Part shown: positions 22,215 to 57,371 of the stretch, piece after piece
Layout: every line of letters starts with the position of its first letter
How positions within the stretch are numbered: position 1 is the stretch's first letter
DNA from: Candidatus Micrarchaeota archaeon
GTDB lineage: Archaea > Micrarchaeota > Micrarchaeia > Micrarchaeales > CABMGC01
Reading direction: 5' to 3'
NCBI GenBank assembly: GCA_028867335.1
Contig: JAGWGN010000002.1
Coordinates: forward strand, 9,829 to 73,828
Length of the DNA stretch: 64,000 nt
The notes under the pieces: generated by a model
What the model was told of the DNA's origin: nothing
Databases searched by the model: none
What the model saw: only the letters and a program-made list of their open reading frames with translations
Translations under genes and position numbers: made by a program

Positions 22215-22230
22215 AACTCACAAATAAGCA

Positions 22231-38978: not shown

Positions 38979-41366
38979 TCAGAAGACAATCTGGTCCAAA
39001 TTGTTTGCGTCAACAAGCCTAATGTATCCGTAGGAGATGCCGATCTTTAGCATCTCAGCCTGGTTTCCGTACGATTTGTAGAGCTTCTCGGTGAATCCAA
39101 GCATCTTCTCCTCATCGGCGAACACGATGTAGGTCTTGAAGTTCGGCGCGACCTCTATGTTTCGCATTGTGCCTAGGCTTGAATAGATGACTATGTGCGT
39201 CTGCGCCCCGCTCTTGCTGAGTGTTATGTCTGCGGCCTCGCTTGCACCCACGTCGGTGAAAAGAAGCGCGTGCCCGACGCAGTAGTCCCTGATCCTTCTG
39301 AAGACGGAGAGATACTCTATATCGTATCCCGAGTCGCTCATCCACTTCTTCGGTGCATAGTATCCTCCGGATGAGACGATGTCCCCGTCAACAATCAGCC
39401 TGCTCATTATCAGGGCGGCATTCTGCATCGTTATCGAGACAGGTATGTTGTTGTAGCGGATGTTGTTGCTCACCCCACTCTTTATCTCCTCAAGGGTGAG
39501 CGGCATGTACTTCCAGTGGTAGAGGAAGTTGACCTTGTCGAATACGTTTAGTATCTCGCCGCGGTTGATCTTGACGTTCACCTTCTTCGCCTGCTGGAAC
39601 TCAGGGACGTCTATATAGTACTCGTCGCGGTTTGGCGGCTTGATGATCAGATTCAGTATCAGCACCGCAAGGCCGACAATCACGAACTCGATGTATATTG
39701 TGGGGATGTTGAGGACCTGCTGGGTGTTTGCGGCTACGTAGCTGTACTTGGTGTTGAAGATGTGCAGGTTGAAGGTCTCCGGTCCGTATCCGATAACTGT
39801 TCCCTTCGGCAGTGAATACGTTATAACCCCTCCGCTTAGCACACCGTTGTATGTGTAGGCGCCGTTTAGGTCCATGGAGTAGGTTGCGTTCGATATAGGG
39901 AAGTTATTGCTCTGGGCAAGGAAGCTGAACGTCCCGTTCGCAAATCCTAGGCTTATCGGGGTGAGCGTCACGCTTGTCACGTTCACTATCGCGCTTGAGT
40001 AGTACTTGTTGAAGAAGTTGCGAAGAACCGCTATGTATGTGCCGCTGGGGATCTGGAAAGAGTAGTACTTTATTATGTCGATGTTTGATGTGGTGTTGAA
40101 GAAAGGTATCGGTATTGCGGCTACAAAGCTGAGGTTCTTGTCGTATAGGTCGATGTGCGGAATCACCAGTTGCGGCGTCGTGGAGTTGACGTTTATCGAC
40201 ACCCCTATCGGCACGCTCTGCGACTGGCCTACGTAAGTGGGCAGCGAGAGGGTGCCGTTTGAGGCATATACGAGGTTTACCGGAATCTGCCTTTCGAGGA
40301 AGTCTGCCGAGTTTCCGACCACTGCGGTCAGAACAGCGTACGAGGCGTTAATTCTCCTCCCTACTCCTCCGGTGTTGTTTATGCTGCTTGCGAATGCTGG
40401 CACCCCTATGGTCGCGCTTTCGCCAGGAATGGTCGTTATGTAGGAGCCGCTTGCTATGTCGTCCATCCAAAAGTGCAGGCTTATCGCCCTTGCTATGTCT
40501 TTTGCGACGTTCGTGCTGTTGCCCCATCCGGATTTTTGCGTATTTGAAAACGAAACCACAGATCCGTTCGCCGTGCTAAGATACGAGGCGGAATACTGAT
40601 AGCCCCCAAGCCTGAAGCCAAATGTCGTGTTCTTGAAATCGAAATAGTTGTTCGTGAGGTTTGTGTTCCTAAACGGTCCGGAATCAAGCCCGATCCGCGC
40701 AATTGCCGTCAAAGTGGCGTTTGACGAGGAGAAGATGACCCCTCCCGGGCCCGAGCTTCTGCTGAAGTTGTCCCCAATATAGAGTATGGTGTCGCTGTTG
40801 TTTATTAAAGTTAGAAGGTTCTCCGATCCGGAAAGCTGGAAGCCGGACTGCGGCAGCATGTATACCGGGAGGAGCCCCGAAGGAACGATTATGGTGGAGC
40901 CGGCAGGCACCGAGGAGAGCTGGCTTGGGTTTATGTAGAAGAGCCTGTTTGTCGCTCCGATCACCCCGTATTTCCTTAGGTAAATGCTGACGTTGGAGAA
41001 AACCGCCAAGTCGCTGTAGCAGTGGTAGCAGTAGTTTGTGGTATTTAGGTAATAGATGTTTGGCAAGGGGTTCTTGGTATAAACGTCAAGGAACAGCTCT
41101 ATTTCGCTGAGGTTTGCCGAGGTGTATCTTGCGACAGCGTAAGGCACAAGCAGCTGCGCGTTGCTGTATGTGGCCACTCCGCTTGACACAAGTGAGACGT
41201 TGAAACTGATCGGGCCGGATACCTGGACCGGGGCCTTGGGTATCGCAGCAAAGGCGCTCTGGGTGTAGATTATTATCCCCGCGACAAGAAGCACTATGGC
41301 GATTATCGGCACCGCTATTATCGCGATCCCCATTTTTTTAGAATTCTCCGCCATCCAACCAGCCAC
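38979..41366 (-). CDS. bitopic surface protein: N-terminal anchor, ~520-aa sequon-rich ectodomain, second TM, ~215-aa cytoplasmic domain
   Basis: 795 aa (GTG at 41366, or ATG at 41354). TM1 is IAIIAVPIIAIVLLVAGIIIY and TM2 is IYIEFVIVGLAVLILNLII. There are many N-x-S/T sites. Last gene of the long - strand operon. Confidence 0.6.
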   Translation of the reverse strand: MAGWMAENSKKMGIAIIAVPIIAIVLLVAGIIIYTQSAFAAIPKAPVQVSGPISFNVSLVSSGVATYSNAQLLVPYAVARYTSANLSEIELFLDVYTKNPLPNIYYLNTTNYCYHCYSDLAVFSNVSIYLRKYGVIGATNRLFYINPSQLSSVPAGSTIIVPSGLLPVYMLPQSGFQLSGSENLLTLINNSDTILYIGDNFSRSSGPGGVIFSSSNATLTAIARIGLDSGPFRNTNLTNNYFDFKNTTFGFRLGGYQYSASYLSTANGSVVSFSNTQKSGWGNSTNVAKDIARAISLHFWMDDIASGSYITTIPGESATIGVPAFASSINNTGGVGRRINASYAVLTAVVGNSADFLERQIPVNLVYASNGTLSLPTYVGQSQSVPIGVSINVNSTTPQLVIPHIDLYDKNLSFVAAIPIPFFNTTSNIDIIKYYSFQIPSGTYIAVLRNFFNKYYSSAIVNVTSVTLTPISLGFANGTFSFLAQSNNFPISNATYSMDLNGAYTYNGVLSGGVITYSLPKGTVIGYGPETFNLHIFNTKYSYVAANTQQVLNIPTIYIEFVIVGLAVLILNLIIKPPNRDEYYIDVPEFQQAKKVNVKINRGEILNVFDKVNFLYHWKYMPLTLEEIKSGVSNNIRYNNIPVSITMQNAALIMSRLIVDGDIVSSGGYYAPKKWMSDSGYDIEYLSVFRRIRDYCVGHALLFTDVGASEAADITLSKSGAQTHIVIYSSLGTMRNIEVAPNFKTYIVFADEEKMLGFTEKLYKSYGNQAEMLKIGISYGYIRLVDANNLDQIVF

Positions 41367-41521
41367 TATACCTCGTCAACCTTCTTCTTCTTGAGTATGT
41401 ATTTGTCGACGAACTTTTCCATGAAGTCGCTTGCGGCATTGCTGCTCTGGTTGACTCTCTTGATCACGTTGTAGACCCTCACGTAGCGGAACTTCTTGTT
41501 TACCGTAGCGAGATATTTCAA
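41366..41521 (-). CDS. possible small basic protein (51 aa, TTG start)
   Basis: My own translation: (M)KYLATVNKKFRYVRVYNVIKRVNQSSNAASDFMEKFVDKYILKKKKVDEV*. It fills the otherwise empty 160-nt gap in the operon. It is below the ORF-track length cut-off and uses a non-ATG start. Confidence 0.25.
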   Translation of the reverse strand: MKYLATVNKKFRYVRVYNVIKRVNQSSNAASDFMEKFVDKYILKKKKVDEV

Positions 41522-41528
41522 GTGACCA

Positions 41529-42251
41529 CTAACTCTTCAGCTCGACGTATCCGAGCGAGACCATCTTGTCGAGTATCTGCTCGATCCTCGGCGCAGCGAT
41601 CTTGTAGTTCGCCGCAAACTCGGTTATGTCGATCGAGTTGTTGTGGGTGACTATCCAGTCCTGCACCATCGCCATCAGCGCCTCGTCGGAGTATGTCTGC
41701 AGCGCCTTGAGCTGCGCGCGCAGCTGCTTGTCCTCCTCGTCAAGCTGCGTCGTCTGTATCGTGAGGTTGCGGTTTGCCGAGGAGAGCTCTAAATTCAGCC
41801 TCCTTATCTCCCTGTACTCGGATAGAAGCGAATCGTACTTGTTGAATAGGGTGCTGTAGCTCTGGGAGAGGCTGTTTAGCACGTCATCGACAGAGGAGTC
41901 TATGTACTGGAAGAACTTCACGCTGTCGATCTGGTATGAGTCGTTGATCATAGAGAGGATGGAGGCGAGGTTCTTGATGACATACAGCCTCCTCACCTTC
42001 TCGCTGGTGTCAGGGGCTATGGAGTAGATCACGTGTATGCCGTCGCTCTTGATGTTTATCAGGTAGAATAGGAACGGTTTCTTCTTGATGTTTCTGCTCT
42101 CGACCTTCGCGATGCTAAGCTCCTCGCCGTTTAGCTTTACTGAGAAGAAGGGGATTGCAGAGAGCTTATCCTTTGCCTGCTCGAGCGTGCCGGTGAGCTT
42201 GCCTGGGAAATCTATCTCCTCAACTCTTGGCACAATCTCCTCATCAGGCAA
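41529..42251 (-). CDS. hypothetical protein with coiled-coil and C-terminal wHTH-like domain
   Basis: 240 aa. C terminus ITEFAANYKIAAPRIEQILDKMVSLGYVELKS. The central part has leucine heptads. Confidence 0.5.
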   Translation of the reverse strand: MPDEEIVPRVEEIDFPGKLTGTLEQAKDKLSAIPFFSVKLNGEELSIAKVESRNIKKKPFLFYLINIKSDGIHVIYSIAPDTSEKVRRLYVIKNLASILSMINDSYQIDSVKFFQYIDSSVDDVLNSLSQSYSTLFNKYDSLLSEYREIRRLNLELSSANRNLTIQTTQLDEEDKQLRAQLKALQTYSDEALMAMVQDWIVTHNNSIDITEFAANYKIAAPRIEQILDKMVSLGYVELKS

Positions 42252-42302
42252 TGGATCACTCTCTAGATATAGCGTATACTACCTATTAAATATATTTATT
42301 GC

Positions 42303-42776
42303 TTACTTCGGCTGCTTTGCGGCGATTTTCGGGGTGTAGTTTAGCAGCGAAAGCAGGTAGAGGAAGACAACAAGCGCTATCGAGACCGCAATCGAGGTTA
42401 CGCTCGGCGAGAGTATTATCCCAAGGAGCGCAAATACGATCCCTATGCCCACATACACCGCCTGCCTCGACTCGTAGGCCTTGCGGCTCTGCTCGTATCC
42501 GAGCCTCTCGACGCTGTTCTGCGAGTGCCTTCCCGCGTCCTCCAGTATGACCACGCCCTCACCCTCAAACTTTGGGTTTACCGCGGCGTCCTTTGTCGCG
42601 TGCATATGCCTTGGGTAGCACTCCTTGCACCAAATCAGCCTGTTGTTCATGACTTTCAGGTGCAGCTTCTCCTTCACAAAGCGTATTGCGCGTATGACAT
42701 AGTCGACCTCAACCTCAAGGCCGTTCCTCTCGTTTCCGCAGCACACGCATACGCTCTTTTTTGCCATAACCATCAC
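42303..42776 (-). CDS. zinc-ribbon (CxxC...CxxC) protein with two C-terminal TM helices
   Basis: 157 aa. CVCCGNE...WCKECYP at the N terminus, then VYVGIGIVFALLGIIL and IAVSIALVVFLYLLSLL. Confidence 0.5.
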   Translation of the reverse strand: MMVMAKKSVCVCCGNERNGLEVEVDYVIRAIRFVKEKLHLKVMNNRLIWCKECYPRHMHATKDAAVNPKFEGEGVVILEDAGRHSQNSVERLGYEQSRKAYESRQAVYVGIGIVFALLGIILSPSVTSIAVSIALVVFLYLLSLLNYTPKIAAKQPK

Positions 42777-43072
42777 TCTATGCTAAGCACGACGATCTTG
42801 CCGAAAGTCTCGTTTATCTTCTCCTCGTCAAGAGCGTTGAATATCTCCGTTATGCTGATATCATCAATCCCCATCCTTCGAAACACGTTTGTTATGTCCC
42901 CCTGTTTTAGCCCCACCTTCTGGAGCATCCCGGCAAACGAGACCGCGTTTACGTGCCTGTGGAGCCTGTTGAGGTTCGCCTCAAGCTCATCCACGCTCTT
43001 GTCGTTCACCTTGAGCATCGCCAGCATCTTCTTTAGCTCAAGCCTGTTCACTACAAATGTGGATCCCGCCAA
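42773..43072 (-). CDS. small helical protein paralogous to the C-terminal tail of the VirB4-like ATPase
   Basis: 99 aa. RHVNAVSFAGMLQKVGLKQGDITNVFRRMGIDDISITEIF aligns with the ATPase tail RQLDVRGFVEILNEFKVDKQNIILLMRSIGLQDMIITRVF. Confidence 0.5.
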   Translation of the reverse strand: MAGSTFVVNRLELKKMLAMLKVNDKSVDELEANLNRLHRHVNAVSFAGMLQKVGLKQGDITNVFRRMGIDDISITEIFNALDEEKINETFGKIVVLSIE

Positions 43073-43076
43073 ACAA

Positions 43077-44585
43077 TCACGTCGCTATATAGGTGAACAC
43101 TCTGGTTATTATCATGTCCTGCAGCCCGATGCTTCGCATCAGGAGTATGATGTTCTGCTTGTCCACCTTGAACTCGTTGAGTATCTCAACAAACCCCCTA
43201 ACATCCAGCTGCCTGTTGTGCTCGTCAAGCCTCCTGAATATGCTCTCTATGACCTCGATGCCTATGTTGCTCTCGATAAGCTTGCTTCGCAAATCGATCT
43301 TCTCGAAGTAGTACTCCTTCTGGATCTCAGCGTTCTCAAGCTCGTCCTGGTTTAGTATGTCCCCTGTCGAGATCGTGTAGACGTCAAGCGGAATCTCCCC
43401 CACCACCTTGTCGATCACGAATATCTCCGGGAACTGCACAGATGTCTGGAAGGACATGTCCACTGCCGCCTGCCCGACCCCGAACTTGCTTATCTCCTTC
43501 CTTATGAAGTCGGAGAAGTTGAGCGAGCCCTGCAGATAGTTCATGAACTTCTCGAACTTTATCCTGAGCATGATTGTCGTGCCGACGTTGGAGAAGATCG
43601 CCTCGTTGATGTCGGTCGGGTTCTGCGATGCAACGATCAGCCCGAACTGGTACTTTCTTCCCTCTCTGACTATCATCACCGCGTCGCTTCTCTCGTCGCT
43701 TGCCACTTTCCACGCCTCGTCCAGCACTATTATTGCGCGAAGCCCCTTTGATGCGCTCCATCCCTCGCTTCTCATCTTCTCCTTCAGCGACTGGAGGATG
43801 AAGAGCGCGGCAAGCGCCCTGAAGCTCTCGTCAGGAAGACCGGAGATGTCCAGGTCGACAAGCCCGGAGGACACCAATTTTCCAAGGTCGAGAGTGCTCT
43901 TCCTTGCGAAGTAGTCCTCTCCCTCCCTTGCGAACTGCCTTAGCCTGTAGATTGCGTTCTCAAGCTCTGCCGGATACTCGTAGGTTCCGTCCTGCAGCTT
44001 TTCCTCAAGAATCGAGATAACTCCCTTTAGCGTCGGCGCATCCTTCTTCGGGTCAGGGATTGCAGCTAGGCTAAATCCTGCGTTGACATAGGTCTGCTCG
44101 ATCGCCTCCATCGTGAGCCTCTTCTGCTCCGGGTACTGCGAGATGTCGGTGAGGATCTCAAAGGAGCTGATTATCTGCTTTGCTCGGTCCAGCGGCTTCA
44201 TCCCGGAGAGGTCCATGATGTTTAGGTAGTCCCCCTTTGCAAGAGAGATGACCGTCCCCCCGCTCTGCTTTACCCAGGCGCGGTATTCCCCAGCCCAGTC
44301 GATTATGATCGCGTTCGTGTTCCAGACGTAGCTTGCGCGGATCAAGAATGTCTTCACAAAGAAGCTCTTACCTGCTCCCGTGATTCCCACGACCGCAAGG
44401 TGCGGGTTCGTGAGGTTCTGGAAGCTCCAGGAGAAGGGTGCATTGAAAACCTTGGTTATACCCACGAAGATCGAGTTCGTAGGGTCGTTGAGTAGGTACT
44501 CATGGGGCGGCTCAGGCGGCCTGCTGAGGAAGACTCGCTTTGCGAGCTCGTTGCTCATCAGGTTTTGCGCCCTTACCAATGTCAT
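43077..44585 (-). CDS. VirB4/TrbE/CedB-like conjugation-type ATPase (ATPase domain only)
   Basis: 502 aa. Walker A VVGITGAGKSFFVKTF, Walker B AIIVLDEAWKVAS (DEAW as in VirB4/TraC-type ATPases) and GLIVASQNPTDI. There is no TM segment and no N-terminal VirB4 domain in this ORF. Confidence 0.75.
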   Translation of the reverse strand: MTLVRAQNLMSNELAKRVFLSRPPEPPHEYLLNDPTNSIFVGITKVFNAPFSWSFQNLTNPHLAVVGITGAGKSFFVKTFLIRASYVWNTNAIIIDWAGEYRAWVKQSGGTVISLAKGDYLNIMDLSGMKPLDRAKQIISSFEILTDISQYPEQKRLTMEAIEQTYVNAGFSLAAIPDPKKDAPTLKGVISILEEKLQDGTYEYPAELENAIYRLRQFAREGEDYFARKSTLDLGKLVSSGLVDLDISGLPDESFRALAALFILQSLKEKMRSEGWSASKGLRAIIVLDEAWKVASDERSDAVMIVREGRKYQFGLIVASQNPTDINEAIFSNVGTTIMLRIKFEKFMNYLQGSLNFSDFIRKEISKFGVGQAAVDMSFQTSVQFPEIFVIDKVVGEIPLDVYTISTGDILNQDELENAEIQKEYYFEKIDLRSKLIESNIGIEVIESIFRRLDEHNRQLDVRGFVEILNEFKVDKQNIILLMRSIGLQDMIITRVFTYIAT

Positions 44586-44617
44586 AATATCATCTTCTAT
44601 TACAGGTTAAAAATACC

Positions 44618-45445
44618 TCACTTTTGCACATTGAACAGCCCCTCAAGCTCCGACGTGCTTGTCGGTATGAAGTATCCGAATCTGAAGAGTATGTTAAGCT
44701 CCCTTCCGACAACCCTTGTTATGCTCAGGTCCATCGAGTTGAACACTGTCTGGAGCTGGTTGATCTGGTTTGTGAGCGCATCCGCAGCCGCCTTCTCGCT
44801 GACTCCCACCGCGATGCTCTCGATATACATCACGCTGCCCACCGGCCTCTCACCTGATGAGAGCCTCTCTATCCTTGACTGGATCACGTTTATCCTCCTC
44901 TGGAAGTCGTCGATCGTTAGCTGGTTCGGGCTCGCAGCCTGCATCTCCTTTGAGAGCTGGAACTCGAGGAAGCCCCTCTTCCCCTCAAGGTCCTCTCGGT
45001 ACGCCTGTATCTCGTTTGCGTAGGTTATCAGGTGGAACTTGAATGGGAACTTCACGTTCATCACTATCCTCTCCCACTTCTCCGGCCCGGATGCGAGCTT
45101 CTGTTCCTCGCTAACATCGACCCGCTCCGCCGCGAAGACGTAGTTGTAGACGTTTGCGGTCAGATATCCAGTCGCGTAGTAGAGCCCGTTTACGTTCTTT
45201 ATTATGCAGTTCTGGTTCTTTGGTATCATGTAGTTCTTTGCCGGCACGGTCTTTATCCCCAGCACTATCGTGACTATCGGGAAGAGTATGAAGTCTGCAT
45301 AGTTTATTATCGCGATTATTATCAGCGTGACTATCGAGAGCACTATCGCGACAATCGAGAGTGGCCCGTAGTTTGCCGAGAAGAATATTGCGATGAGTGC
45401 GACTATCCCAGTGAATCCCAGATAGATTATAGTTTCCTCGTCCAT
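44618..45445 (-). CDS. membrane-anchored protein, paralog A (VirB3/VirB4-N-like candidate)
   Basis: 275 aa. 2-3 N-terminal TM helices, then a ~190-aa soluble domain (IIKNVNGLYYATGYLTANVY...FKFHLITYANEIQAYREDLEGKR...). Same architecture as the adjacent 276-aa protein, with 1 nt between the two genes. Confidence 0.55.
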   Translation of the reverse strand: MDEETIIYLGFTGIVALIAIFFSANYGPLSIVAIVLSIVTLIIIAIINYADFILFPIVTIVLGIKTVPAKNYMIPKNQNCIIKNVNGLYYATGYLTANVYNYVFAAERVDVSEEQKLASGPEKWERIVMNVKFPFKFHLITYANEIQAYREDLEGKRGFLEFQLSKEMQAASPNQLTIDDFQRRINVIQSRIERLSSGERPVGSVMYIESIAVGVSEKAAADALTNQINQLQTVFNSMDLSITRVVGRELNILFRFGYFIPTSTSELEGLFNVQK

Positions 45446-45446
45446 G

Positions 45447-46277
45447 TTACAGCCCCTCAGAGACAGTCTTCTGCCTTATTTCCTCGCTGACAGTCGAGAA
45501 CGGTATCGTGTAGTCAGCCTGCGTGACAAGCAGTATCTCCTCCCCGCTCATCATAGACGTGGTGATTCCGAGCGTTGCGCCGATTCCTGATGATAGCTCA
45601 TCCGCCTGCTGGGTCGCAAGGGCCGTCGCCTCCTCTTCCGTGCTCCCCATCGCGGTCACCGTGACGTAGTTTAGCAGCGCATGCGACTGGATCCTCCCGA
45701 TGCTCTCAAGCAGATTGTGCCACATCGTGACCTCCCCCTTCTCCCTCTCGACTACGCTCGGATTCGCCTCCTTCTCGCTCATCGATTTTTGGTATCGCTC
45801 CTCGACCTCGTTGAGCCTGTCGCGTATCTTGTTTATGTACTCGTCCTTGTTGATGAGGTACATCTGTGTGGTTATCTTGTACGGCGTCTTGCTGATGCTG
45901 ACGATCCTGCTAAAGAGCCTAGCAAAGTCAATCTTCTCCTCCTCGTTCATCTCGGTGGCGGACTTGTAGATCGGTATCTTCACAAAGGCGGTCGCGTAGA
46001 CATCGCTTCCCTCCCTTGTTATTATCGCATTGCCTGACGGGGCGATGTAGAAGGGCTCCTCGTTGCTTAAAACTATCGTCTTGTCCTTCATCCTGTAGAG
46101 AGGTATGAAGAGGTAGCTGTAGAACCTAGTCGACATGGCGAGTATGTCTATGAAGAGGGCTATTGCAAGGAAGATTATCTTTACGTAGCTCGGAATCTGC
46201 AGCGTCGAGGTCACGATCATTATCACTAATGAGATTCCAACGAACGCTACAAAGAGCAGTGACTTGAGGCTAGGCAA
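45447..46277 (-). CDS. membrane-anchored protein, paralog B (VirB3/VirB4-N-like candidate)
   Basis: 276 aa. 2-3 N-terminal TM helices, then a soluble domain (IITREGSDVYATAFVKIPIY...YKITTQMYLINKDEYINKIRDRL...). Confidence 0.55.
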   Translation of the reverse strand: MPSLKSLLFVAFVGISLVIMIVTSTLQIPSYVKIIFLAIALFIDILAMSTRFYSYLFIPLYRMKDKTIVLSNEEPFYIAPSGNAIITREGSDVYATAFVKIPIYKSATEMNEEEKIDFARLFSRIVSISKTPYKITTQMYLINKDEYINKIRDRLNEVEERYQKSMSEKEANPSVVEREKGEVTMWHNLLESIGRIQSHALLNYVTVTAMGSTEEEATALATQQADELSSGIGATLGITTSMMSGEEILLVTQADYTIPFSTVSEEIRQKTVSEGL

Positions 46278-46331
46278 TCAGATCCCTACGATACATATCC
46301 TGCAAAAATCTATAAATAACAACAGCACCCC

Positions 46332-47471: not shown

Positions 47472-47480
47472 GTTTTCACC

Positions 47481-49723: not shown

Positions 49724-51778
49724 CTAAACCAGCTTTCCAAGCCCTGCTATGTCTGTGTCCCCGCCAAAGAGGAACGAGACGTTCTTCATCGCCGAGAGTA
49801 TTATCAGTATGTTGAGGAAGGGTATGACAAATCCCGCCACGGACATCAGCCCGTAGACGTCCATGAACTCCATCGAGGTAGCGACTGCGGCCGATGGTAC
49901 GCACGGGGTGCTGAGTATGCCCGTCAGCTGCGGAACCTGCGAAACGAATCCGCCAAATGTGAACGCCGCCCCGAAGCCGAGCGAGATCGCCATGAGTACC
50001 GAGTCCTTTGCCTCCTCTGCCGGAAGGTTGCCTGCAAGCGGCCAGCATCCGTTGTAGTTCGCTATGGCCGAGATGCTCGGGAAGACATAAAAGTTTGGGG
50101 TCAGCGAGTTGTATATTATGTCCCTGCAGTCTGGGCTAACGTTGGGATCGCAAGGACTCTTCTCAGGCCCCCATGCTCCCCCGGTAGCGAAGGCGAGATT
50201 TATCTGTATGTTGTCAGAGCTCGATGTCTGCGTGTCGGTTGTTATCGGATTTAGCCCAACCGCAACCGCCTGCGATACCGAGTTCATGTTCCCCTTGTCG
50301 TCAGTTACCGTCAGCTTTATCGTCGGATTTGAAGCGCTAGCATATGTGTGGCTTAGTCCCTGCGGCCATCCTGTCGAGGTCTTCCCGTCCCCCCAGTCCC
50401 ATGCTATCGTTGTCTTGGGGTTCCCGGTGTTTTGGTTGTCAACGCTTCCCTGTGGCGTGACGATCAGACCAGTAGTCGGAAGGCCGTGAAGGTATATCCC
50501 AGGAAGCTGCTGCTCGTTTCCGACCTGCGTCACCTGTACCGTTGCCACACCGTACTGGTCAACATTCACCTCAAAGCTCACAGGCAGCAGTGCGCCCTTG
50601 GCAGACTGCGCAGTCTGGGAGATGGCCGCCCCCGGAATTACATCCAGATTCGCGCTCGCGCTTCCCGACTGCCCGTTGCTCTGCACGTCAAGAGTTATGG
50701 TTTGTGGGCCAGGAAGGAATGTGTGGGTTGCCGACATCCCGCTGCTAGTGGCGCTGTTGTCGTTCCAGTTCCACGTTGCCTGCGGCGGGATAGGGGCCCC
50801 GACAAGCTGGCTTGTGGTCACCCCGCTGCCCAGCATGTTGTATTCGATTATCATCACCAGCGGCAGTATTATCACAATCACCAGGGTTATCCCCATCAGG
50901 AGCCCTCCCGCGCTCCTCGTGAAGGAGATCGCCCTGAGGATTATGCCTGCGGCAAGAAGGAAAGGCCACACCACGAGCAGTATGAACATTATGACCAGCT
51001 GAGTTAGGAACATGTACATTATGAATATCCCCTGGGTCTCAAGCGGCTTTGTCATGAATGTTATCAGAGAGTATCCAGCGAAAGGCTGTGAGGCCAAGTC
51101 TATCGATAGCAGCCTAGGCACCAGCGGGTCTGCGCAGGCGGACGGCAGGCAGAGCCCCGGATCGGACTTTAGGGTGGAGAGGAATCCGATCATTCCCTCG
51201 TAGACGTAGAGCCCGTTTAGGTTCGCAGCCGCCTGATTTGTGAGGTTTGCAATCATCACGTAGCTTGAGGCAAGTCCGTAGTTCACATACGAGCTCGCGC
51301 TCCCTCCGGAGTTCTGCGAGTTCTCCACCAGCGCGCACACAAAGCTGGTCGGGTCCCCCTGCAGAAGGCTGACCTGGGAATTCTGCAAATCGCCGCACAT
51401 GTTCGTGACGTGGCTGCCGAAGTCTCCTGTTGATGTGCCCACAAGGCTTGAGTTCGAGACAAAGCTTCCGAAGAGAATGAGGACGCTTATTATCAGCACA
51501 ACGTATATCGCAGTCCCTATCGATTGGCCAAGCTCTGTTATTCCCCTCGAGCTTATCTGCCCGTCGTTTAGCAGCTTGCCGATGATGTACAGGAAGAACC
51601 CTATCGCGATCGAGATGAATATCGCGATGGAGACTATCGGGAGCCATGAGCTGAGCGATCCGAGCGGATTGGTCACCTGGGTCGGGAAGTTGATCACCTG
51701 GGCCGAGGCGGAGCCAAAGAGGATGGCGAGCGCTAGCAAAGCGAGCGAAAACGTGATTGCAGTTTTGTTGTGCGCCAT
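49724..51778 (-). CDS. polytopic membrane protein, tandem paralog 4 of 6, with two PKD-like domains inserted in an external loop
   Basis: Track ORF 49724..51808. I prefer the ATG at 51778 (MAHNKTAITFSLALLALAILFGSASA/QV), 4 nt after the upstream stop. Family motif AAGIILRAISFTRSAGGLLMGITLVIVIILP. The insert carries ATWNWNDNS...HTFLPGPQTITLDV and TIAWDWGDGKTSTGWPQGLSHTYASASNPTIKLTVTDDKGN. Confidence 0.7.
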   Translation of the reverse strand: MAHNKTAITFSLALLALAILFGSASAQVINFPTQVTNPLGSLSSWLPIVSIAIFISIAIGFFLYIIGKLLNDGQISSRGITELGQSIGTAIYVVLIISVLILFGSFVSNSSLVGTSTGDFGSHVTNMCGDLQNSQVSLLQGDPTSFVCALVENSQNSGGSASSYVNYGLASSYVMIANLTNQAAANLNGLYVYEGMIGFLSTLKSDPGLCLPSACADPLVPRLLSIDLASQPFAGYSLITFMTKPLETQGIFIMYMFLTQLVIMFILLVVWPFLLAAGIILRAISFTRSAGGLLMGITLVIVIILPLVMIIEYNMLGSGVTTSQLVGAPIPPQATWNWNDNSATSSGMSATHTFLPGPQTITLDVQSNGQSGSASANLDVIPGAAISQTAQSAKGALLPVSFEVNVDQYGVATVQVTQVGNEQQLPGIYLHGLPTTGLIVTPQGSVDNQNTGNPKTTIAWDWGDGKTSTGWPQGLSHTYASASNPTIKLTVTDDKGNMNSVSQAVAVGLNPITTDTQTSSSDNIQINLAFATGGAWGPEKSPCDPNVSPDCRDIIYNSLTPNFYVFPSISAIANYNGCWPLAGNLPAEEAKDSVLMAISLGFGAAFTFGGFVSQVPQLTGILSTPCVPSAAVATSMEFMDVYGLMSVAGFVIPFLNILIILSAMKNVSFLFGGDTDIAGLGKLV

Positions 51779-51782
51779 AAAC

Positions 51783-52967
51783 TCAGCTAAAGAGGCTCTC
51801 CGACCCAAGGAAGTTTAGCGCCGCGCTGATTCCCTTGGCAAGCCCTGCCGCCAGCCCTATCGTTATTGCAAGGTCAAGCGCTATGAGCACAGTCGTCTGG
51901 AAAATGTACCCTGCCACCTGCATCCCGACGTTTGTTACTATCGCAGGGGCCGCGAAGATGGCTGTGAGCGGATCCGAGGACTTGAGGAATGTGCTAAAGA
52001 ACTCCCCTACAGCGCTGCCGTAAAAGTTTGTGGGCAGCTGGACCCCGCCGAATCCGAAGTCCGGCTGCGGGGCCGATCCAAAGAGCGAGGACTGAGTGAG
52101 CCCAGGAACATTGTAGCTTCCAGAGTACTGCGGGTAGGGGTTTGCGCAGCTTGCCTGCGAGGGGGTGCAGTACATCCAGTTTATTATCTGTGCATCCATA
52201 ACAAAAGTCATCGGGAAGATGAAATAGAAAGCTAGTGCTATGGCGAGGAACTCGTTTGCGGCCTGCCTGAGCCTAGGCCCGGTGAAGGAGAGGCTTCGCA
52301 TTATGAGCGCTACGGGAAGCACCACAGTCAGCGCTGCTGCCTGTATGAGCGGAAGGGCGAGGAACTGCAAAAAGAGCATCGAGAAGCTTAGGACAACAAG
52401 CGGTATGAAGACATCCGTTAGAACAGTTGCGTAGTTCTTGTATATCGAGCTGAAGTCAGGTGCGCCCACGCTTGCTGCGAATATCTTGGAGTTTTTCAGC
52501 CCGGGTATCAGGGGGTTGAGCGGCAGGTCTGGCAGCGCCTCCGAGAGCCCTGTGAGCACTCCGGAATAGATCGTGAACGCTATGCTTGTGGAGTAGATGC
52601 TGTTCATCAGCCCTATCCCGTTGACAAAGAGGAGCCCTCCCACGTAATGCTGCGCAAAGGAGAACGAGTCCTGGCTGGGCTGGGTGAGTTGCAGGCTGAC
52701 ATTGCAGGCCGTTGTGGCTATCCCCATTATGATGACGATTATCAGCATGCTGATTATCGCCTGCCCAAGCTCAAATCGCACAAATCCCCTGATCCTCTCC
52801 CTCTCCCTTCCCCCTGCAAAGTTTGCGATAAGATACACAAGGCCCGCTATCGTCAGGCTGAGCAGTATGACAAGAGCGCTTATCCCGATCCAGTCGTTGC
52901 TGTTTATCCCCCCAAAAGTGCAGCTGCTTGAAACAGCGGAGGATGCTTGGAATAGTAGGTTTTGCAT
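51783..52967 (-). CDS. polytopic membrane protein, tandem paralog 5 of 6 (most divergent)
   Basis: 394 aa. Degenerate motif VALIMRSLSFTGPRLRQAANEFLAIALAFYFIFP. No obvious cleavable signal peptide. Confidence 0.65.
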   Translation of the reverse strand: MQNLLFQASSAVSSSCTFGGINSNDWIGISALVILLSLTIAGLVYLIANFAGGRERERIRGFVRFELGQAIISMLIIVIIMGIATTACNVSLQLTQPSQDSFSFAQHYVGGLLFVNGIGLMNSIYSTSIAFTIYSGVLTGLSEALPDLPLNPLIPGLKNSKIFAASVGAPDFSSIYKNYATVLTDVFIPLVVLSFSMLFLQFLALPLIQAAALTVVLPVALIMRSLSFTGPRLRQAANEFLAIALAFYFIFPMTFVMDAQIINWMYCTPSQASCANPYPQYSGSYNVPGLTQSSLFGSAPQPDFGFGGVQLPTNFYGSAVGEFFSTFLKSSDPLTAIFAAPAIVTNVGMQVAGYIFQTTVLIALDLAITIGLAAGLAKGISAALNFLGSESLFS

Positions 52968-52971
52968 AATA

Positions 52972-54183
52972 TCACTTTATCTTGAGCTTCCCGAACTCTA
53001 TGTTTATCGTTCCCCCAAGCGACTTTGCTATGCTGTCTATTATAGGGAAGGCGATCGCAAGGTCAAGGATCAAGAGCAAAAACTGAACGACCGCAGGCAT
53101 GGTGAATCTAAAAACCCCGTTCAGGCCCGGATATATCGAGCTTATGCTTGCGAGCGCGTCTGCCGCTCCCTGCCCCTGCGGCAGATAAGAAGTCGCCGAA
53201 GAGATCCACCACGGCGCAGTGGCCGATGCGCCTGCCGTTCCGGGCACTGCTATGTACGTGTTCACTATGTTGCTTATCGGCTGGTTCACTATCAGTATTA
53301 TCGATGGAAAGACTATGGTTATCCCAATCCCTATCCCTATCAGGGTCCCCCCAATCCCCCTTACGAACGGCATCGCCCTGAAGATTATCCCCATAGGTAT
53401 CATGAATGCGAGTCCGATGAATACGAGCATCGGCATGAGGTAATACTCCATCCCTATCACTGTGTAAACTGGTAGGATTATCATGCTTATCGCGTCGTTT
53501 ATCAGTGACTCGTAGCCTCCCGCATCAGGGGCTCCAGCCAGCATCGGGTTTTTGTAGATTGAGAATCCTGTCCCCAAGGTGAATGTTGGGATTGCCTGAA
53601 GGATCGTGGCCCCCAGCGGAATGGGTATGTAGTATCCCACCTGCAGGTTGCTGATTGCTCCGAGTCCCAGGCTGATCCCAAGCAGGTACCCTATGTAGTT
53701 TGCGCCTCCAAGCATCACGCTGCCCCCTGAAGGGTTTGGTTGCACAGTGCCGCAGAAAGCGAGTTGCAAATAGCTCTGAGTGGCAGTGGTCAGCGCGGAG
53801 AGCGATGCGCCCAGCGAGCTGCCTGCAGGCACGTTCACAGAAGACCCGGCAAGGCCCACTGCCACGCTTCCAAGCAGGACCATTATTGAGTATATCCCTG
53901 CGATGAGCATCGCCGACTTTGCAACCTCCCAGTACTCCTTCTTCACCCAGTTGGAGAGCTGCGTTCCGGGAACCAGCTTTCCGACTATGTATCCTATAGC
54001 GATTATGTCAAAGGAGATGCTCAAGGCGATGAGCGCAATCCCTATCAAGGGAATCTGGTTTATCGTTATGCCCACCGGTGCGGTATTTGTGCAGATGTTC
54101 TGGGCGTTTGAGACCCCGAAGAGGAAAAGGAAGAGCAGCAGTGGCGCCATTACCCTAGAAAGTCGCCCTCCCATCAAAACCAA
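52972..54183 (-). CDS. polytopic membrane protein, tandem paralog 6 of 6
   Basis: 403 aa. Signal peptide ...LFGVSNA/QNI. Family motif PMGIIFRAMPFVRGIGGTLIGIGIGITIVFP. Confidence 0.7.
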   Translation of the reverse strand: MVLMGGRLSRVMAPLLLFLFLFGVSNAQNICTNTAPVGITINQIPLIGIALIALSISFDIIAIGYIVGKLVPGTQLSNWVKKEYWEVAKSAMLIAGIYSIMVLLGSVAVGLAGSSVNVPAGSSLGASLSALTTATQSYLQLAFCGTVQPNPSGGSVMLGGANYIGYLLGISLGLGAISNLQVGYYIPIPLGATILQAIPTFTLGTGFSIYKNPMLAGAPDAGGYESLINDAISMIILPVYTVIGMEYYLMPMLVFIGLAFMIPMGIIFRAMPFVRGIGGTLIGIGIGITIVFPSIILIVNQPISNIVNTYIAVPGTAGASATAPWWISSATSYLPQGQGAADALASISSIYPGLNGVFRFTMPAVVQFLLLILDLAIAFPIIDSIAKSLGGTINIEFGKLKIK

Positions 54184-54217
54184 TAAGCTATTACAGCGAT
54201 TCTTTTTATTCCTTTCA

Positions 54218-54991
54218 TCAGGCGTTCTTGATGATAGAGAAGCGCTTCATGTACGCCTCCGCCTGGAAGATTACAAAATAAGGAAGTATGATCAGCGAGC
54301 TGATCAGCAGCACTATGTAGCGGCTTGCCTGCGTGCCGCTTATCCCTATTGCAAGGAAGTCCACGACCGAGAGCGTGACAAGCAGGAGGAAGATCCCGAA
54401 TAGGAAGTACTGCGGCTCGCGCACAACAAGCTTTGCGCTGTCCTTTATCGCGCGTATCATGTGCTTGTTGTCGATCACCATCGCCGCTGGCGCATAGAAT
54501 ATCAGCATGAATCCGATGAACCCGAAGATCGCCGTCAATATCCCTGAGATCCCGAGATAGTATCCTATCACATTGACTATTATCAGCAGGAACTGGAAGG
54601 CAAGCAGAAGCACAAAAACCTTGGCGGTGTATTTCTCTATGCCCTTGAGCACCCCCCTGCCCGTCTTCACGTGCGTCCTTGTTGACTTGACTATCAGGCT
54701 GATTGCGACAAGGGCGAAGCTGAGGAACAAGAGAGAGACGAAGATTGGTATTACGATTGCGACAAGGCTGATTATGTTTAGGTTGATGAATATGCTTGCG
54801 CTCCTAAGGAATATCCCCCCGGAGGTTATGTAGGTGGGGAGCGGCGCGAGCACAGGTATCAGAAAGGAGATCAAAAATGGGATGGAGAAGAGAGCTATGA
54901 ACTTGAGGTTCTCGCTGTACGTCTCAAAGGAGTCCTCGATTATGCCTGCCATGAATACCAATACGCATTGGAGTGCAATAAATAAAAACAC
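54218..54991 (-). CDS. polytopic membrane protein (about 6 TM), unknown function
   Basis: 257 aa, almost entirely hydrophobic helices. 3 nt from the upstream gene. Confidence 0.6.
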   Translation of the reverse strand: MFLFIALQCVLVFMAGIIEDSFETYSENLKFIALFSIPFLISFLIPVLAPLPTYITSGGIFLRSASIFINLNIISLVAIVIPIFVSLLFLSFALVAISLIVKSTRTHVKTGRGVLKGIEKYTAKVFVLLLAFQFLLIIVNVIGYYLGISGILTAIFGFIGFMLIFYAPAAMVIDNKHMIRAIKDSAKLVVREPQYFLFGIFLLLVTLSVVDFLAIGISGTQASRYIVLLISSLIILPYFVIFQAEAYMKRFSIIKNA

Positions 54992-54994
54992 ATC

Positions 54995-56920
54995 TCATTT
55001 TCCGCTGCTCATCCCCAGTATGCTCTGGTTGAAGACGCCATCCGAAACATAGAGGTGCTCGCCGTTGTAAATGTTTGCCCTAACCCCATACACCGGGTTG
55101 CCTGATGAGGGCCTTATGTACATCACCAGACTATACGAAGAGGCATTGCCTGGCAGCGCTATTTTGTTTACGTTCACCATGCACCTATAATCCTCCCCGC
55201 CACACTGCACGCTGTCATTTATCAGCGCATAGTTTAGTATGCCTGCAAAGCCTATGTTGTACTTTGAGATGACCCCCGCGAAGACGTACACGGAATCGTT
55301 TGATAGGTTCGCGTAATGGATGGTTGCCGTGTATACCGTTTTGTTCAGGGCGCTGTCAAAATGAATGCTTGCGTTGCTCACGCTCAGATTGAAATTATTT
55401 TGGTAGGCGAGGTGCGAACCGCAAATCAGATAAATAGGGACTGCCACAACCACGGCCACGATGCACAGAACCGCATTCCTGTTTTCGCCCATCCATCTTC
55501 TTATCTGGCCCTTTCCGCCTTTTTGTGCGATGAAAAGGCTGACTATCGCAAATCCTGTGAAGAACGTGTAGTATATAGGTATCGAGTGGGACAAAAAGAG
55601 GAAGGGCACCATTGCAAAGATTCCGACAAGCCTCTTCTGGTTTAGGTAAGCGAAGAGCATCGCAAAAAGTGCCATCGCTGCGAGAAACACTATGGAGAAT
55701 GTGCCCAAAAGCATGTGGTAGTTTGTCGCAATCAGGTACCCTATCGGTGAGGACGACTCAGGAAGAAGCAGCTGGTTTACCGGGCCAAAAAGGTTGCCAA
55801 AAAAGGCGCTCGGGTTCAAAAGTATGAAGTAAAGGTTGAGTGCGATAAAGACTCCCAGCGATCCGATTAGGTTCTGCGCGCCTTTTCTAATCCCGGAGTT
55901 GCTTGCCGAGTATATTATCAGGAGTATCACTGGGAACCAAAGCTGCTCCTGTATGGATAGGCATAGCCCCAAGAAGAGCCATGAATATCTGCTCTCAAGT
56001 TTTGCGTATGCTACCAGGAGCAGGGCGAACATCAGGAATATGGTTATGGAGGAGAGGTACGCCATCGCGATTGTCAAGAAGAGTATTATGCCGTAGACCG
56101 GCTTCTCTATGTATCTTTTCTCGACCAAAAGCGCTGTCGCAAAGAAGGCAAGCAGCAGGAAAATCATCCCCTGCGCCTCTATGTCTATGTTTACAAGGTT
56201 CTGCAAAGTCGGGGTTGAAATCAGATAGAACGGCATAAATGAGAGCAAAAAGAGGGACGGATAGTTTAGTGTACCGATTATGTGGTTCGTAGTGGTTATG
56301 CTGGGCGAGTTTATCGCGCCGCTTGTCGAGTTGTAGAAGATCTGGGATGAAACGGACATCCCGTAGGGGTTCATCCCGGCAAGCAGGTATTTCGTGCTTG
56401 CGAACTGTATGAATATCTCATCGTCTATTTTGTAGTGGTGGTAGACCAGCCCGGAGAAGAAGTAGAGGATCATCACCACAACAAACATCCCAAAGAGCAT
56501 CGCTGACAGCTTTCGGTAGCCCTGCCGATAAAGGTAGAGCCCGAAGAACGTCAGGAAGATAAGCGGCAAGAAGAGCACGAAGTTTATCGCCACGTACTGG
56601 TACGCCGAGACAAGGTAAGCTGTCATCGTCGTCCTCGCGCCAGTCTCAACGAGAAGCAGGATCAGGAAGTTGATAACCAAAAAGGCAAACGTGCCATTTA
56701 ATGCCAGCTTCCCAGGTTCTGAAACTTTCCTTTTTCCCTCCGATATCAAGAATAGCGTTGAATAAGCTACGAAAAGAATCGCATCGGCAAGCGTTGCAAG
56801 CTGAACATAGAAAGAGATTAGCCCGAAGACGGCAAGAGCTGTAGCGAAGCTGATGAAAACAAACGAGGCTATGAAGAAAAAAAGCCTGTACCTGCCCTTA
56901 TCGGACTTTATAATCTCCAT
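54995..56920 (-). CDS. large polytopic membrane protein (12 or more TM) with C-terminal ectodomain; possible GT-C-type glycosyltransferase
   Basis: 641 aa. An early-loop acidic motif followed by HHYKIDDEIFIQFASTKYLLAGMNPYG resembles the D/E loop plus G..pY of GT-C (DUF2029/GT87/PMT-like) enzymes. The C-terminal ~170 aa are sequon-rich. The function is tentative. Confidence 0.55.
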   Translation of the reverse strand: MEIIKSDKGRYRLFFFIASFVFISFATALAVFGLISFYVQLATLADAILFVAYSTLFLISEGKRKVSEPGKLALNGTFAFLVINFLILLLVETGARTTMTAYLVSAYQYVAINFVLFLPLIFLTFFGLYLYRQGYRKLSAMLFGMFVVVMILYFFSGLVYHHYKIDDEIFIQFASTKYLLAGMNPYGMSVSSQIFYNSTSGAINSPSITTTNHIIGTLNYPSLFLLSFMPFYLISTPTLQNLVNIDIEAQGMIFLLLAFFATALLVEKRYIEKPVYGIILFLTIAMAYLSSITIFLMFALLLVAYAKLESRYSWLFLGLCLSIQEQLWFPVILLIIYSASNSGIRKGAQNLIGSLGVFIALNLYFILLNPSAFFGNLFGPVNQLLLPESSSPIGYLIATNYHMLLGTFSIVFLAAMALFAMLFAYLNQKRLVGIFAMVPFLFLSHSIPIYYTFFTGFAIVSLFIAQKGGKGQIRRWMGENRNAVLCIVAVVVAVPIYLICGSHLAYQNNFNLSVSNASIHFDSALNKTVYTATIHYANLSNDSVYVFAGVISKYNIGFAGILNYALINDSVQCGGEDYRCMVNVNKIALPGNASSYSLVMYIRPSSGNPVYGVRANIYNGEHLYVSDGVFNQSILGMSSGK

Positions 56921-56957
56921 AAAGAAAAATAAAAAACAGACTGAACCCTACAGGACT

Positions 56958-57371
56958 TCAGCACGCAAGTGAAGAGAGTCCCGATCCGAAGTTCAGTATT
57001 GTTGATATTATGAATGGCGCAAGTATCACGAGTATCACTCCGATGACCCCACCGAGAATCATACCCATTGCCCATCCCTGCATGCTTGCCTTTACCTGTC
57101 CTGCCGCAGGCATGAAGTGTCCGACTGCGTACAGCACTCCTCCCACGAGGAACATGACAAGAGCGATCACTCCGATGACAGTCCTCACTCCGCCGACTAT
57201 GCCGCAGAGCTGTGAGGTTAGAACATCAATTGTTGAGCCGTTGGTTCCTGAAACCGTAGTTCCAGAAGAAGATCCTCCTCCAGAAACGCTAGTTGCAGCA
57301 TTTACAATGCTAAACATGCTACCTAGAAGTATTGTAAGCATCCAAAGAAGTCTAATGTTTGAACTCTTCAC
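56958..57371 (-). CDS. VirB2/TrbC/CedA1/TedC-like pilin candidate
   Basis: 137 aa with a GTG start. Sec signal peptide MKSSNIRLLWMLTILLGSMFSIVNA/ATS. Next comes a Ser/Gly/Thr-rich segment, then two hydrophobic helices (VRTVIGVIALVMFLVGGVLYAVG and WAMGMILGGVIGVILVILAPFIISTIL) joined by the short loop HFMPAAGQVKASMQG. First gene of the operon. Confidence 0.6.
   Translation of the reverse strand: MKSSNIRLLWMLTILLGSMFSIVNAATSVSGGGSSSGTTVSGTNGSTIDVLTSQLCGIVGGVRTVIGVIALVMFLVGGVLYAVGHFMPAAGQVKASMQGWAMGMILGGVIGVILVILAPFIISTILNFGSGLSSLAC

Follow-up and report, generated by a model that had tools for sequence, protein, structure and literature searches.

The DPANN archaea, like the Patescibacteria (candidate phyla radiation, CPR), are ultrasmall, host-dependent cells, and a central question about them is by what route material moves from symbiont to host and back. 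CPR were recently found to need a chromosomal type IV secretion system (T4SS) in order to grow on the host; the tubes and docking structures of DPANN cells lack assigned genes. The question taken up here is what is encoded by a tightly packed block of 17 open reading frames (ORFs; g1 to g17), all on the minus strand at positions 38979–57371 of a 64,000-nt stretch of DNA from Candidatus Micrarchaeota, a DPANN archaeon. This whole stretch is called the window, and coordinates refer to it unless another locus is named. An initial annotation, made from the sequence, had likened the block to conjugation machinery. With a probability of about 0.72, the locus is a chromosomally fixed, vertically inherited derivative of a type IV secretion (conjugation) apparatus, similar in general kind to Ced and Ted of other archaea, and may let Micrarchaeota exchange macromolecules with other cells.

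The ATPase of the locus is g12 (502 aa, 43077–44585), which corresponds to the C-terminal (motor) domain of a VirB4/CedB-family ATPase with a helical tail of about 100 aa, as judged from Pfam, NCBIfam and its relatives. It has both of the motifs initially annotated, GITGAGKS as Walker A and LDEAW as Walker B. Pfam matches are DUF87, AAA_10 and P-loop_TraG, and the NCBIfam models that rank highest are the VirB4-like CD1110 (5.9e-18), CedB (4.9e-17), CedD (7.2e-17) and VirB4_plasma (2.8e-16); among PDB sequences, the VirB4 C-terminal domain 4ag5 is matched over its whole length (1.5e-7). The score against the CedB equivalog NF041017 is 61.8 bits (E 4.9e-17), with a model cutoff of 700 bits, and g12 is therefore a homologue and not an orthologue of CedB. 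Taken alone, the protein is ambiguous between VirB4/CedB and HerA. When 1.84 billion cluster representatives were searched exhaustively with HMMER, 1972 relatives were found; the closest ones with a different build are fused proteins of 689–913 aa in which the match to g12 begins at about residue 220–310. Those of about 890 aa (three scanned, 885–892 aa) have two transmembrane (TM) helices, an N-terminal domain (NTD), the ATPase and a C-terminal region, the last of which looks winged-helix-turn-helix (wHTH)- and nuclease-like to the eye. CedB is the best model for P0401 (6.9e-42, profile positions 75–587 of 590, vs 5.9e-17 for HerA), P0413 (1.5e-36 vs 1.7e-19) and P0444 (1.1e-26 vs 2.1e-7), and in all three the match spans both NTD and ATPase; CedB also ranks first for the more distant unfused relatives P0366 and P0416. 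Because these fused intermediates prefer CedB, by 25 orders of magnitude in P0401, g12 can be placed firmly in the VirB4/CedB family by sequence, and the type of ATPase initially proposed is thus supported through the closest relatives beyond the clade. In g12, the Walker A motif comes after just some 55 residues; the protein therefore lacks an NTD and has no room for the HAS-barrel of HerA. Pfam found neither NurA nor a HAS-barrel among the 17 operon proteins, and a helicase of the HerA–NurA type was rejected on both counts.

Some variants of the ATPase deserve mention in their own right. Two Micrarchaeota orthologues carry an intein with a homing-endonuclease-like insert, located just before the Walker B DEAW in P0362 (1026 aa) and right after the P-loop GSGKS in P0363 (1196 aa). 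Inteins typically occur in genes that are old and strongly conserved. The complete chromosome L073 (Micrarchaeota, 776,853 bp) has an ATPase 69% identical to g12, and there the gene is called as three ORFs of 244, 180 and 86 aa (12846–14366 of that locus), which could be due to assembly frameshift errors or to a pseudogene.

The domain missing from g12 is found in the two genes adjacent to it. The proteins g10 (276 aa, 45447–46277) and g11 (275 aa, 44618–45445) each consist of N-terminal TM helices and an alpha/beta domain, and they align over their full length (E ~1e-7 in an all-against-all BLASTP), as expected from their first description as two paralogous TM-plus-soluble-domain proteins. 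An AlphaFold2 (AF2) model of g11, with a predicted local distance difference test (pLDDT) score of 83.5, was compared with the PDB using Foldseek. The top three matches are chains of 747–808 residues in the R388 T4SS entries 8rtb and 8rtd (probability 0.99, E 0.013, 190 aligned columns); TrwK/VirB4 alone of the listed subunits is long enough to fit these chains. In this search the fold resembled VirB4 and not VirB8. For g10, a profile of 67 orthologues was searched against 150 representatives and 300 decoys. It matched solely the N-terminal ~250 residues of fused CedB-like ATPases, collinearly, as did BLASTP: P0413 at 2.1e-6 (positions 4–253 against 3–248), P0444 at 1.4e-5, P0407 at 2.4e-5 and P0401 at 4e-3, with the first decoy at E 0.25. 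Since the fold of g11 matches TrwK/VirB4 and the sequence of g10 matches the N-termini of the fused relatives, the data support a VirB4 protein spread over three genes, with g10 (paralogue A) and g11 (paralogue B) as detached, duplicated VirB4/CedB NTDs bearing a VirB3-like membrane anchor and g12 as the C-terminal motor. This split architecture was not recognised in the earlier reading of the locus and is, on the present support, new.

The first gene, g1 (137 aa, 56958–57371), encodes a VirB2/TrbC-type pilin, according to family-level Pfam matches. Its sequence shows a signal peptide that can be cleaved off, a mature N-terminus rich in Ser/Thr/Gly and two hydrophobic helices, which are linked by a conserved G-G-x-L-Y-A-x-x-H-x-x-P loop. 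Orthologues were collected from 64 related loci in metagenomes (L077–L140), and 33 diverse ones were aligned and scanned singly. T4SS_pilin is matched by 12 of these (best 9.8e-6) and TrbC/VirB2 by 11 (best 7.5e-8), and no unrelated Pfam family was as frequent or as strong among the 33. Because the orthologues match these two families and nothing unrelated comparably, the sequence matches firmly establish g1 as a member of a VirB2/TrbC-type pilin family. The pilin claim of the initial annotation is thereby borne out at the level of the family, the window copy itself being below threshold. Two conserved cysteines, Cys56 and the C-terminal Cys137, are a further property of g1. In the pilin orthologues of L077–L140 (57 in all), one cysteine is placed where helix 1 starts and the second, in most of them, at or a few residues from the C-terminus; among the 50 unique orthologues that could be scored, both are present in 47, neither in 3 and a single one in 0. 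This strict co-occurrence suggests an end-to-end Cys56–Cys137 disulfide, or another terminal modification, of the pilin. Such a disulfide would be functionally reminiscent of the head-to-tail cyclisation of TrbC/VirB2. Several genomes (L073, L080 and L134) have two tandem pilin copies.

Between the pilin and the motor lie six polytopic proteins: g4 (403 aa, 52972–54183), g5 (394 aa, 51783–52967), g6 (694 aa, 49724–51808), g7 (397 aa, 48530–49723), g8 (350 aa, 47481–48533) and g9 (379 aa, 46332–47471), of which g9 is the best conserved. That the six are paralogous, as first annotated, is confirmed by mutual BLASTP matches (E 4e-9 to 1e-3) and by a common R-x4-(T)R-x2-GG motif. All six, g4 included, have 1:1 orthologues arranged in unchanged order in L073, where orthologues match at E 1e-29 to 1e-89 and cross-paralogue matches are at E 1e-4 to 1e-7; the six-fold expansion is therefore old. 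The initial annotation had also described PKD decoration. An extracellular insert of g6 does carry a PKD domain (residues 448–513; Pfam PKD_4, 3.2e-13), but the insert is lineage-specific and not general, most orthologues of g6 being 490–560 aa long. In its AF2 model (pLDDT 85.8), g9 forms a bundle whose helices are very long, up to 72 residues, and its best full-length natural membrane protein in Foldseek, at a non-significant score, is TrwI/VirB6. Position, topology and this weak fold resemblance make g4–g9 candidates for VirB6/CedA-like channel subunits.

The setting of these genes indicates a resident locus. The 17 co-directional genes initially annotated, with their coordinates and short or negative spacers, were all reproduced from the ORF coordinates. 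Neighbouring genes overlap by 4 nt at 48530–48533 (g7/g8) and 42773–42776 (g13/g14) and by 1 nt at g16/g17, and g6 directly abuts g7; gaps are 1 nt at 45446 (g10/g11), 3 nt at 54992–54994, 4 nt at 43073–43076 and 52968–52971, and 32 nt between g11 and g12, the widest spacers inside the operon being 30–55 nt. The divergent intergenic region 5' of g1 (172 bp) contains the TATA-box-like TTTAAATA on the minus strand (57404–57411, read from the sequence), which lies 33–40 nt 5' of the GTG start of g1, and GGTG 6–9 nt 5' of the start codon. TTTAAATA is a putative operon promoter and GGTG a putative ribosome-binding site, and a single archaeal promoter for the whole 17-gene block would fit the layout. 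The GC content of the operon (0.45–0.56) falls within the range of the window, in line with the earlier remark that its base composition resembles that of its neighbours. The flanking genes are archaeal housekeeping genes, encoding topoisomerase VI subunit B (TopoVI-B), a KH protein, CDC48, aIF2-gamma, DNA polymerase IV and uracil-DNA glycosylase; TopoVI-B (37337–38971) is convergent with g17 at a distance of 7 nt. Hypothetical proteins 100% identical to g9 (KGH65_01555) and g11 (KGH65_01545) have been deposited from a Candidatus Micrarchaeota metagenome-assembled genome. The window is DPANN chromosomal DNA.

Conservation was assessed by a scan with the ATPase as query in one genome per GTDB species, which gave 72 loci, nearly all labelled Micrarchaeota, Micrarchaeia, Micrarchaeales or Micrarchaeaceae and a few labelled otherwise, e.g., Marsarchaeota or Acidiferrales. 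The ATPase is 55–91% identical across these genomes. In tblastn searches with all operon proteins, gene order is the same in 68 of the 72 loci, a degree of clustering far beyond chance, and the four exceptions are cross-hits of g4 to its paralogues. Of the 44 loci whose upstream sequence is long enough, 40 have g5–g9, and TopoVI-B is found downstream in 51 of 54. Upstream, the flanking genes differ between loci: L073 has threonyl-tRNA synthetase there, and L074 and L076 have genes for ribosomal proteins. Pfam detected no integrase, relaxase, VirD4/TraG coupling protein (type IV coupling protein, T4CP) or VirB11 in the 17 operon proteins and 30 other large ORFs of the window; for VirB8-like (NTF2 fold) and VirB1-like (hydrolase) proteins, neither Pfam nor NCBIfam gave a match in the operon. 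These results firmly show a chromosomal, vertically inherited locus of the Micrarchaeota core genome, and the conserved synteny, together with the failure to find an integrase or relaxase, strongly supports the view that it is not mobile. Thus, the initial description of a resident rather than mobile apparatus holds.

Based on the assignments above and on homologues, the following way of working can be proposed. The VirB2/TrbC-like pilin g1 would be inserted into the membrane, processed and probably tied by its Cys56–Cys137 disulfide, and would be polymerised to give a pilus of the conjugative type, with g4–g9 as its membrane platform. These six, as candidate VirB6/CedA equivalents, would form a hetero-oligomeric channel. 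The membrane-anchored NTD proteins g10 and g11 would dock the ATPase-only g12 to the channel and so supply it with energy; the three together would mimic the VirB3–VirB4 'hexamer of dimers' of bacteria and the CedB/CedD pair of Sulfolobales. The remaining g13, g14, g15, g16 and g17 would be cytoplasmic and surface accessory parts, g17 being a giant glycosylated 2-TM protein. By analogy with related systems, the most likely job of the apparatus would be contact-dependent transfer of macromolecules across the envelope. As its substrate, DNA imported from a host or sister cell, as in Ced and Ted, is tentatively favoured, at odds somewhat short of even. Pilus formation, the role of the channel, the substrate and the direction of transport are all proposed here from such likenesses.

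Ced and Ted are domesticated T4SSs (PMC9905601), and the comparison with them is the closest at hand. Ced, from Sulfolobales (CedA, CedA1, CedA2, CedB, CedD and CedE), is likewise a chromosomal, relaxase-less archaeal T4SS derivative; it also has a two-helix VirB2-like pilin and polytopic membrane proteins in paralogous copies (CedA/CedE), and the function of the VirB4 NTD is divided between the paralogues CedB and CedD (PMC9905601, PMC11868833), CedB being the best match of the nearest fused relatives of g12. CedB's and CedD's NTDs jointly resemble the NTD of VirB4, and VirB3 and VirB8 are reported absent from archaeal Ced systems (PMC11868833). Unlike in Ced, the NTDs of the Micrarchaeota system are separate genes without an ATPase domain, and g12 has neither an NTD nor a TM segment; polytopic paralogues number six instead of one or two; the signal peptide of g1 is cleavable, in contrast to CedA1, which is reportedly not processed; a conserved module, g13–g17, is added; and the lineage is DPANN, not Thermoproteota. 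In the Ted system of Thermoproteales (TedA, TedB and TedC), the pilin has an N-terminal signal sequence cut by signal peptidase I, comparable to the signal peptide of g1, and a VirB6-like membrane protein and VirB4-like ATPase are encoded in a chromosomal locus (PMC9905601). Compared by its description, Ted differs in that TedB is an unsplit VirB4 and six-fold expansion is lacking. The Micrarchaeota system is a homologue of such T4SS-derived systems that would work in a like manner, and an orthologue of neither Ced nor Ted. It differs from them in five respects: its VirB4 is split, the NTD is duplicated, six paralogues make up the membrane module, the g13–g17 module is present and the lineage is DPANN.

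Bacterial systems provide further points of comparison. In its biology, the Micrarchaeota locus would most resemble the T4SS of Patescibacteria, which likewise belongs to ultrasmall host-dependent cells, is chromosomal, nearly universal and mostly relaxase-less, and has VirB2-like pilins of the Pfam T4SS_pilin type (PMC12102498, PMC12857230). That system was essential for epibiotic growth in the single strain tested (PMC12102498, PMC12857230). It differs in being bacterial, of MPF-FATA descent, with VirB1, VirB3, VirB6, VirB8 and VirD4 homologues and an unsplit VirB4, whereas the Micrarchaeota locus has no detectable VirB1, VirB8 or VirD4 and its ATPase is nearer to CedB. Without a coupling protein and relaxase, the locus matches Ced/Ted and most Patescibacteria systems. 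The R388 Trw and Agrobacterium VirB systems share with it a VirB2-type pilin, a VirB4 motor with a membrane-associated NTD (through the match of g11 to TrwK-length chains) and possibly, though weakly, a VirB6-like helical membrane subunit. Unlike them, the Micrarchaeota locus lacks the outer-membrane core (VirB7, VirB9 and VirB10) and has no detectable VirB5, VirB8, VirB11, VirD4 or relaxase; its VirB4 is in three genes, and it is chromosomal and vertically inherited. The rvh T4SS of Rickettsiales is reported to be chromosomal in obligate symbionts and to have duplicated components, including several VirB6 paralogues (PMC2653234, PMC7648143). It sets a precedent, by analogy only, for channel-subunit expansion in a host-dependent lineage; rvh differs in belonging to diderm bacteria, in having recognisable VirB6 (TrbL) domains and in secreting protein effectors. 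In a full-text search of the published literature, the Micrarchaeota locus was not found described, including in Micrarchaeota comparative genomics (PMC12892359), the papers on the A_DKE culture and the cryo-electron tomography (cryo-ET) of ARM-1.

Other readings of the locus have to be weighed against a T4SS derivative. T4SS-like genes usually reside on plasmids or integrated conjugative elements, and 246 of the 480 plasmids with distant matches to the ATPase are conjugative; both points speak for an integrated conjugative element or its recently domesticated remnant. Yet all of these plasmid matches are below 30% identity, gene order and flank (TopoVI-B and the KH protein) recur in nearly all of the 72 genomes, composition is that of the rest of the window, the scan of the ORFs brought up neither an integrase nor a relaxase nor a T4CP, and the operon borders are free of tRNAs. 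Intein-bearing alleles are also what would be expected of old housekeeping genes. A mobile element is thus effectively refuted by the synteny and by the absence of integrase and relaxase from the search results, and this reading is very improbable. Another is that the locus has nothing to do with T4SSs and encodes a lineage-specific envelope complex, for S-layer anchoring, surface assembly or membrane remodelling, with an ATPase of the HerA/FtsK superfamily and with convergent or spurious similarities elsewhere; the anchoring of the Micrarchaeota S-layer is reported to be unexplained. Several results weigh in this direction or against a conjugation-derived machine. The best PDB sequence matches of g12 are to HerA (2.8e-11), the NCBIfam HerA model (3.5e-16) scores nearly as high as the VirB4/CedB models, and the branch placement of g12 comes from score ranking. 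For the NTD proteins, the Foldseek E value of g11 is just 0.013 in an output that does not indicate the aligned part of TrwK, and NCBIfam gave no VirB4, CedB or CedD match among 74 members of the g10/g11 family (1 of 74 at 0.028). The window copy of the pilin matches T4SS_pilin at 22.2 bits (1.5e-4) vs a cutoff of 26.6, and the pilin profile found no pilin among PDB sequences. The doubts are greatest for g4–g9, whose VirB6-type identity, claimed initially, is not established, there being no sequence link: the 74 orthologues of g9 gave no Pfam match to VirB6/TrbL/CedA/TedA families, and their profile matched no PDB sequence. In Foldseek, TrwI/VirB6 of R388 (7o3v) ranks 5, 6 and 42 for g9 at non-significant E values of 0.43–1.7 (probability 0.41–0.66, TM 0.30–0.37), among designed helical repeats and TTYH channels. 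A pilin-like match to the N-terminus of the channel protein has been reported for CedA1/CedA and VirB2/VirB6 (PMC9905601), and the pilin profile does align with the N-terminal Cys-plus-hairpin region of g9, at an hhalign probability of only 2.5%. Like g4–g9, the proteins g2, g3 and g17 have no detectable family, and the searches gave no functional assignment for g2, g3 and g13–g17. Nevertheless, about one-third of the pilin orthologues match two Pfam pilin families of the T4SS clan, CedB is matched by the bridging relatives across both NTD and ATPase (1e-27 to 1e-42) much better than HerA is, the short N-terminus of g12 and lack of a NurA partner do not fit HerA, the g11 fold matches VirB4 ahead of all else in the PDB, and no operon protein matches PF05123, the Pfam family of the known Micrarchaeota S-layer protein. 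An unrelated envelope complex is, on balance, improbable.

A closer rival accepts the T4SS-derived machine and differs as to what it does, namely, that it does not move DNA and acts as an adhesion or contact pilus, or as a conduit for protein, lipid or metabolites, in episymbiosis with the host; something similar is suspected of the essential T4SS of Patescibacteria. Neither relaxase and T4CP nor HerA/Rad50 or ParA were seen in or near the locus; HerA, ParA/MinD and Rad50 neighbours are common in Ted loci (PMC9905601), and the Micrarchaeota locus differs from Ted in lacking them. The genes belong to the core set of an obligately host-dependent lineage, with ATPase identities of 72–98% among the 120 clusters listed, and surface recognition is suggested by the PKD inserts and by giant glycosylated proteins of the surface. 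In Patescibacteria, the T4SS is essential on the host in a way that does not depend on uptake of DNA (PMC12857230), and cryo-ET of the Micrarchaeote ARM-1 showed tube connections and a docking barrel of unknown composition on the symbiont side (PMC11329633). However, the nearest characterised homologues, CedB and Ced/Ted, move DNA, the operon retains Zn-ribbon and wHTH-like proteins, the fused ATPase relatives end in regions that look wHTH- and nuclease-like, and effector candidates were not identified. A machine that does not move DNA is therefore possible, if rather unlikely.

Should the locus be a T4SS derivative, it would add a lineage outside Thermoproteota to the archaea known to have domesticated conjugation machinery, and it would represent a new way to build a VirB4 motor, from a detached, duplicated NTD and a bare ATPase. 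Such a split motor bears on the evolution of the VirB4 'hexamers of dimers' and of the CedB/CedD pair. A bolder proposal, which we regard as doubtful, is that the locus is to DPANN what the essential T4SS is to Patescibacteria, used on the symbiont side for the uptake of DNA, nucleotides or other macromolecules from Thermoplasmatales or Sulfolobales hosts, and that the split VirB4 and six-paralogue channel mark a third independent archaeal domestication of conjugation machinery. The same proposal would equate the apparatus with the 21-nm 'barrel', a docking platform of unexplained composition seen in the envelope of ARM-1 by cryo-ET (PMC11329633), a link that is speculation. As a lineage-wide candidate of 17 genes, the locus can be tested in Micrarchaeota co-cultures (A_DKE, Mia14 and ARM-1).

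The accessory genes fall on both sides of this core. Next to the pilin, g2 (641 aa, 54995–56920) has about 13 TM segments, a C-terminal extracellular domain with 10 sequons and an invariant D167–E168. It is present in many related loci, not all, and is absent beside the operon in L073 and L074. The profile of its orthologues matched nothing in Pfam or among PDB sequences; a GT-C glycosyltransferase was considered for g2 because of the invariant DE motif, but it was dropped for want of support from Pfam and the PDB. The following g3 (257 aa, 54218–54991), initially annotated as a 6-TM protein, instead has about 7–8 hydrophobic segments and a weak NCBIfam match only (0.0028). It adjoins the pilin gene in L073, L075 and L076, even where the operon is rearranged; in L076, the pilin module has been relocated downstream of the ATPase with g3 still beside the pilin. 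A candidate role for g3 is thus maturation or assembly of the pilin.

Downstream of the ATPase, g13 (99 aa, 42773–43072) is helical and a probable paralogue of the tail of g12: the C-terminal ~75 residues of g12 (43077–43375) align with g13 at a local score of 64, compared with 30.2 ± 5.9 (maximum 56) for shuffled sequences, which suggests a duplicated helical domain common to both. The sequence of g14 (157 aa, 42303–42776) shows a cytoplasmic CxxC...CxxC zinc ribbon and a C-terminal TM hairpin; the gene is kept in nearly all related loci, including the divergent L065. An N-terminal domain, a coiled coil and a C-terminal winged-helix-like domain make up g15 (240 aa, 41529–42251), which is 30–87% identical across loci, has weak Pfam matches to coiled-coil and HTH families and, as a profile against the PDB, matches coiled coils and, weakly, a winged helix (0.36). 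The small basic protein g16 (51 aa, 41366–41521) is 42–76% identical in 20 loci. The last gene, g17 (795 aa, 38979–41366), has homologues in 61 loci. Initially called bitopic, it has two TM segments (8–43 and 550–579), which bound about 500 extracellular residues with 20 N-x-S/T sequons and precede a conserved cytoplasmic C-terminal domain of about 215 aa. It has no Pfam match, and a profile of 29 orthologues retrieved only coiled-coil noise from the PDB. An S-layer protein was rejected for g17, as the known S-layer protein of Micrarchaeota carries PF05123.

In the most divergent locus studied closely (L065, 7364–15504, ATPase 57% identical), g14, g15 and g17, which are conserved across the loci, persist: of the NTD proteins just one is left, alongside the ATPase, g13, g14, g15 and a homologue of g17, and no pilin or six-paralogue module was recognisable upstream. 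The cytoplasmic module may thus be the older or more stable core of the system. Some related operons contain extra genes not found in the window (L075 16269–17156 and 11223–12305, L074 2417–3523, L076 1997–3673). One of these, between g14 and g15, encodes a Laminin_G_3 protein whose signal peptide is of the archaeal class III (type IV pilin-like) sort, and another belongs to a membrane-protein family that starts with M-x-L-x-(A/S)-(V/L)-G-A-(I/V)-(D/N)-A-L-x-P-V-L.

Elsewhere in the window, the plus strand at 57544–60717 encodes, divergently from the operon, two surface proteins with PKD repeats, one of 720 aa with 7 repeats and one of 319 aa; they are not conserved neighbours, the upstream flank being different in L073–L076. 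A separate archaeal type IV pilus-like locus at 11292–25630 has a T2SSE ATPase (22881–24404), two T2SSF/PilC-like proteins (20171–22214) and three giant Laminin_G_3 surface proteins (11292–14708, 15237–17414 and 17405–20152); it probably serves adhesion and is separate from the T4SS-like operon. On the minus strand are an exosortase/archaeosortase-like protein at 6855–8363 (Exosortase_EpsH, 5e-14), a third tRNA-like match at 27692–27752 (Rfam, 30 bits, not called by ARAGORN) and, at 33301–34059, a stand-alone CDC48 N-domain protein beside aIF2-gamma.

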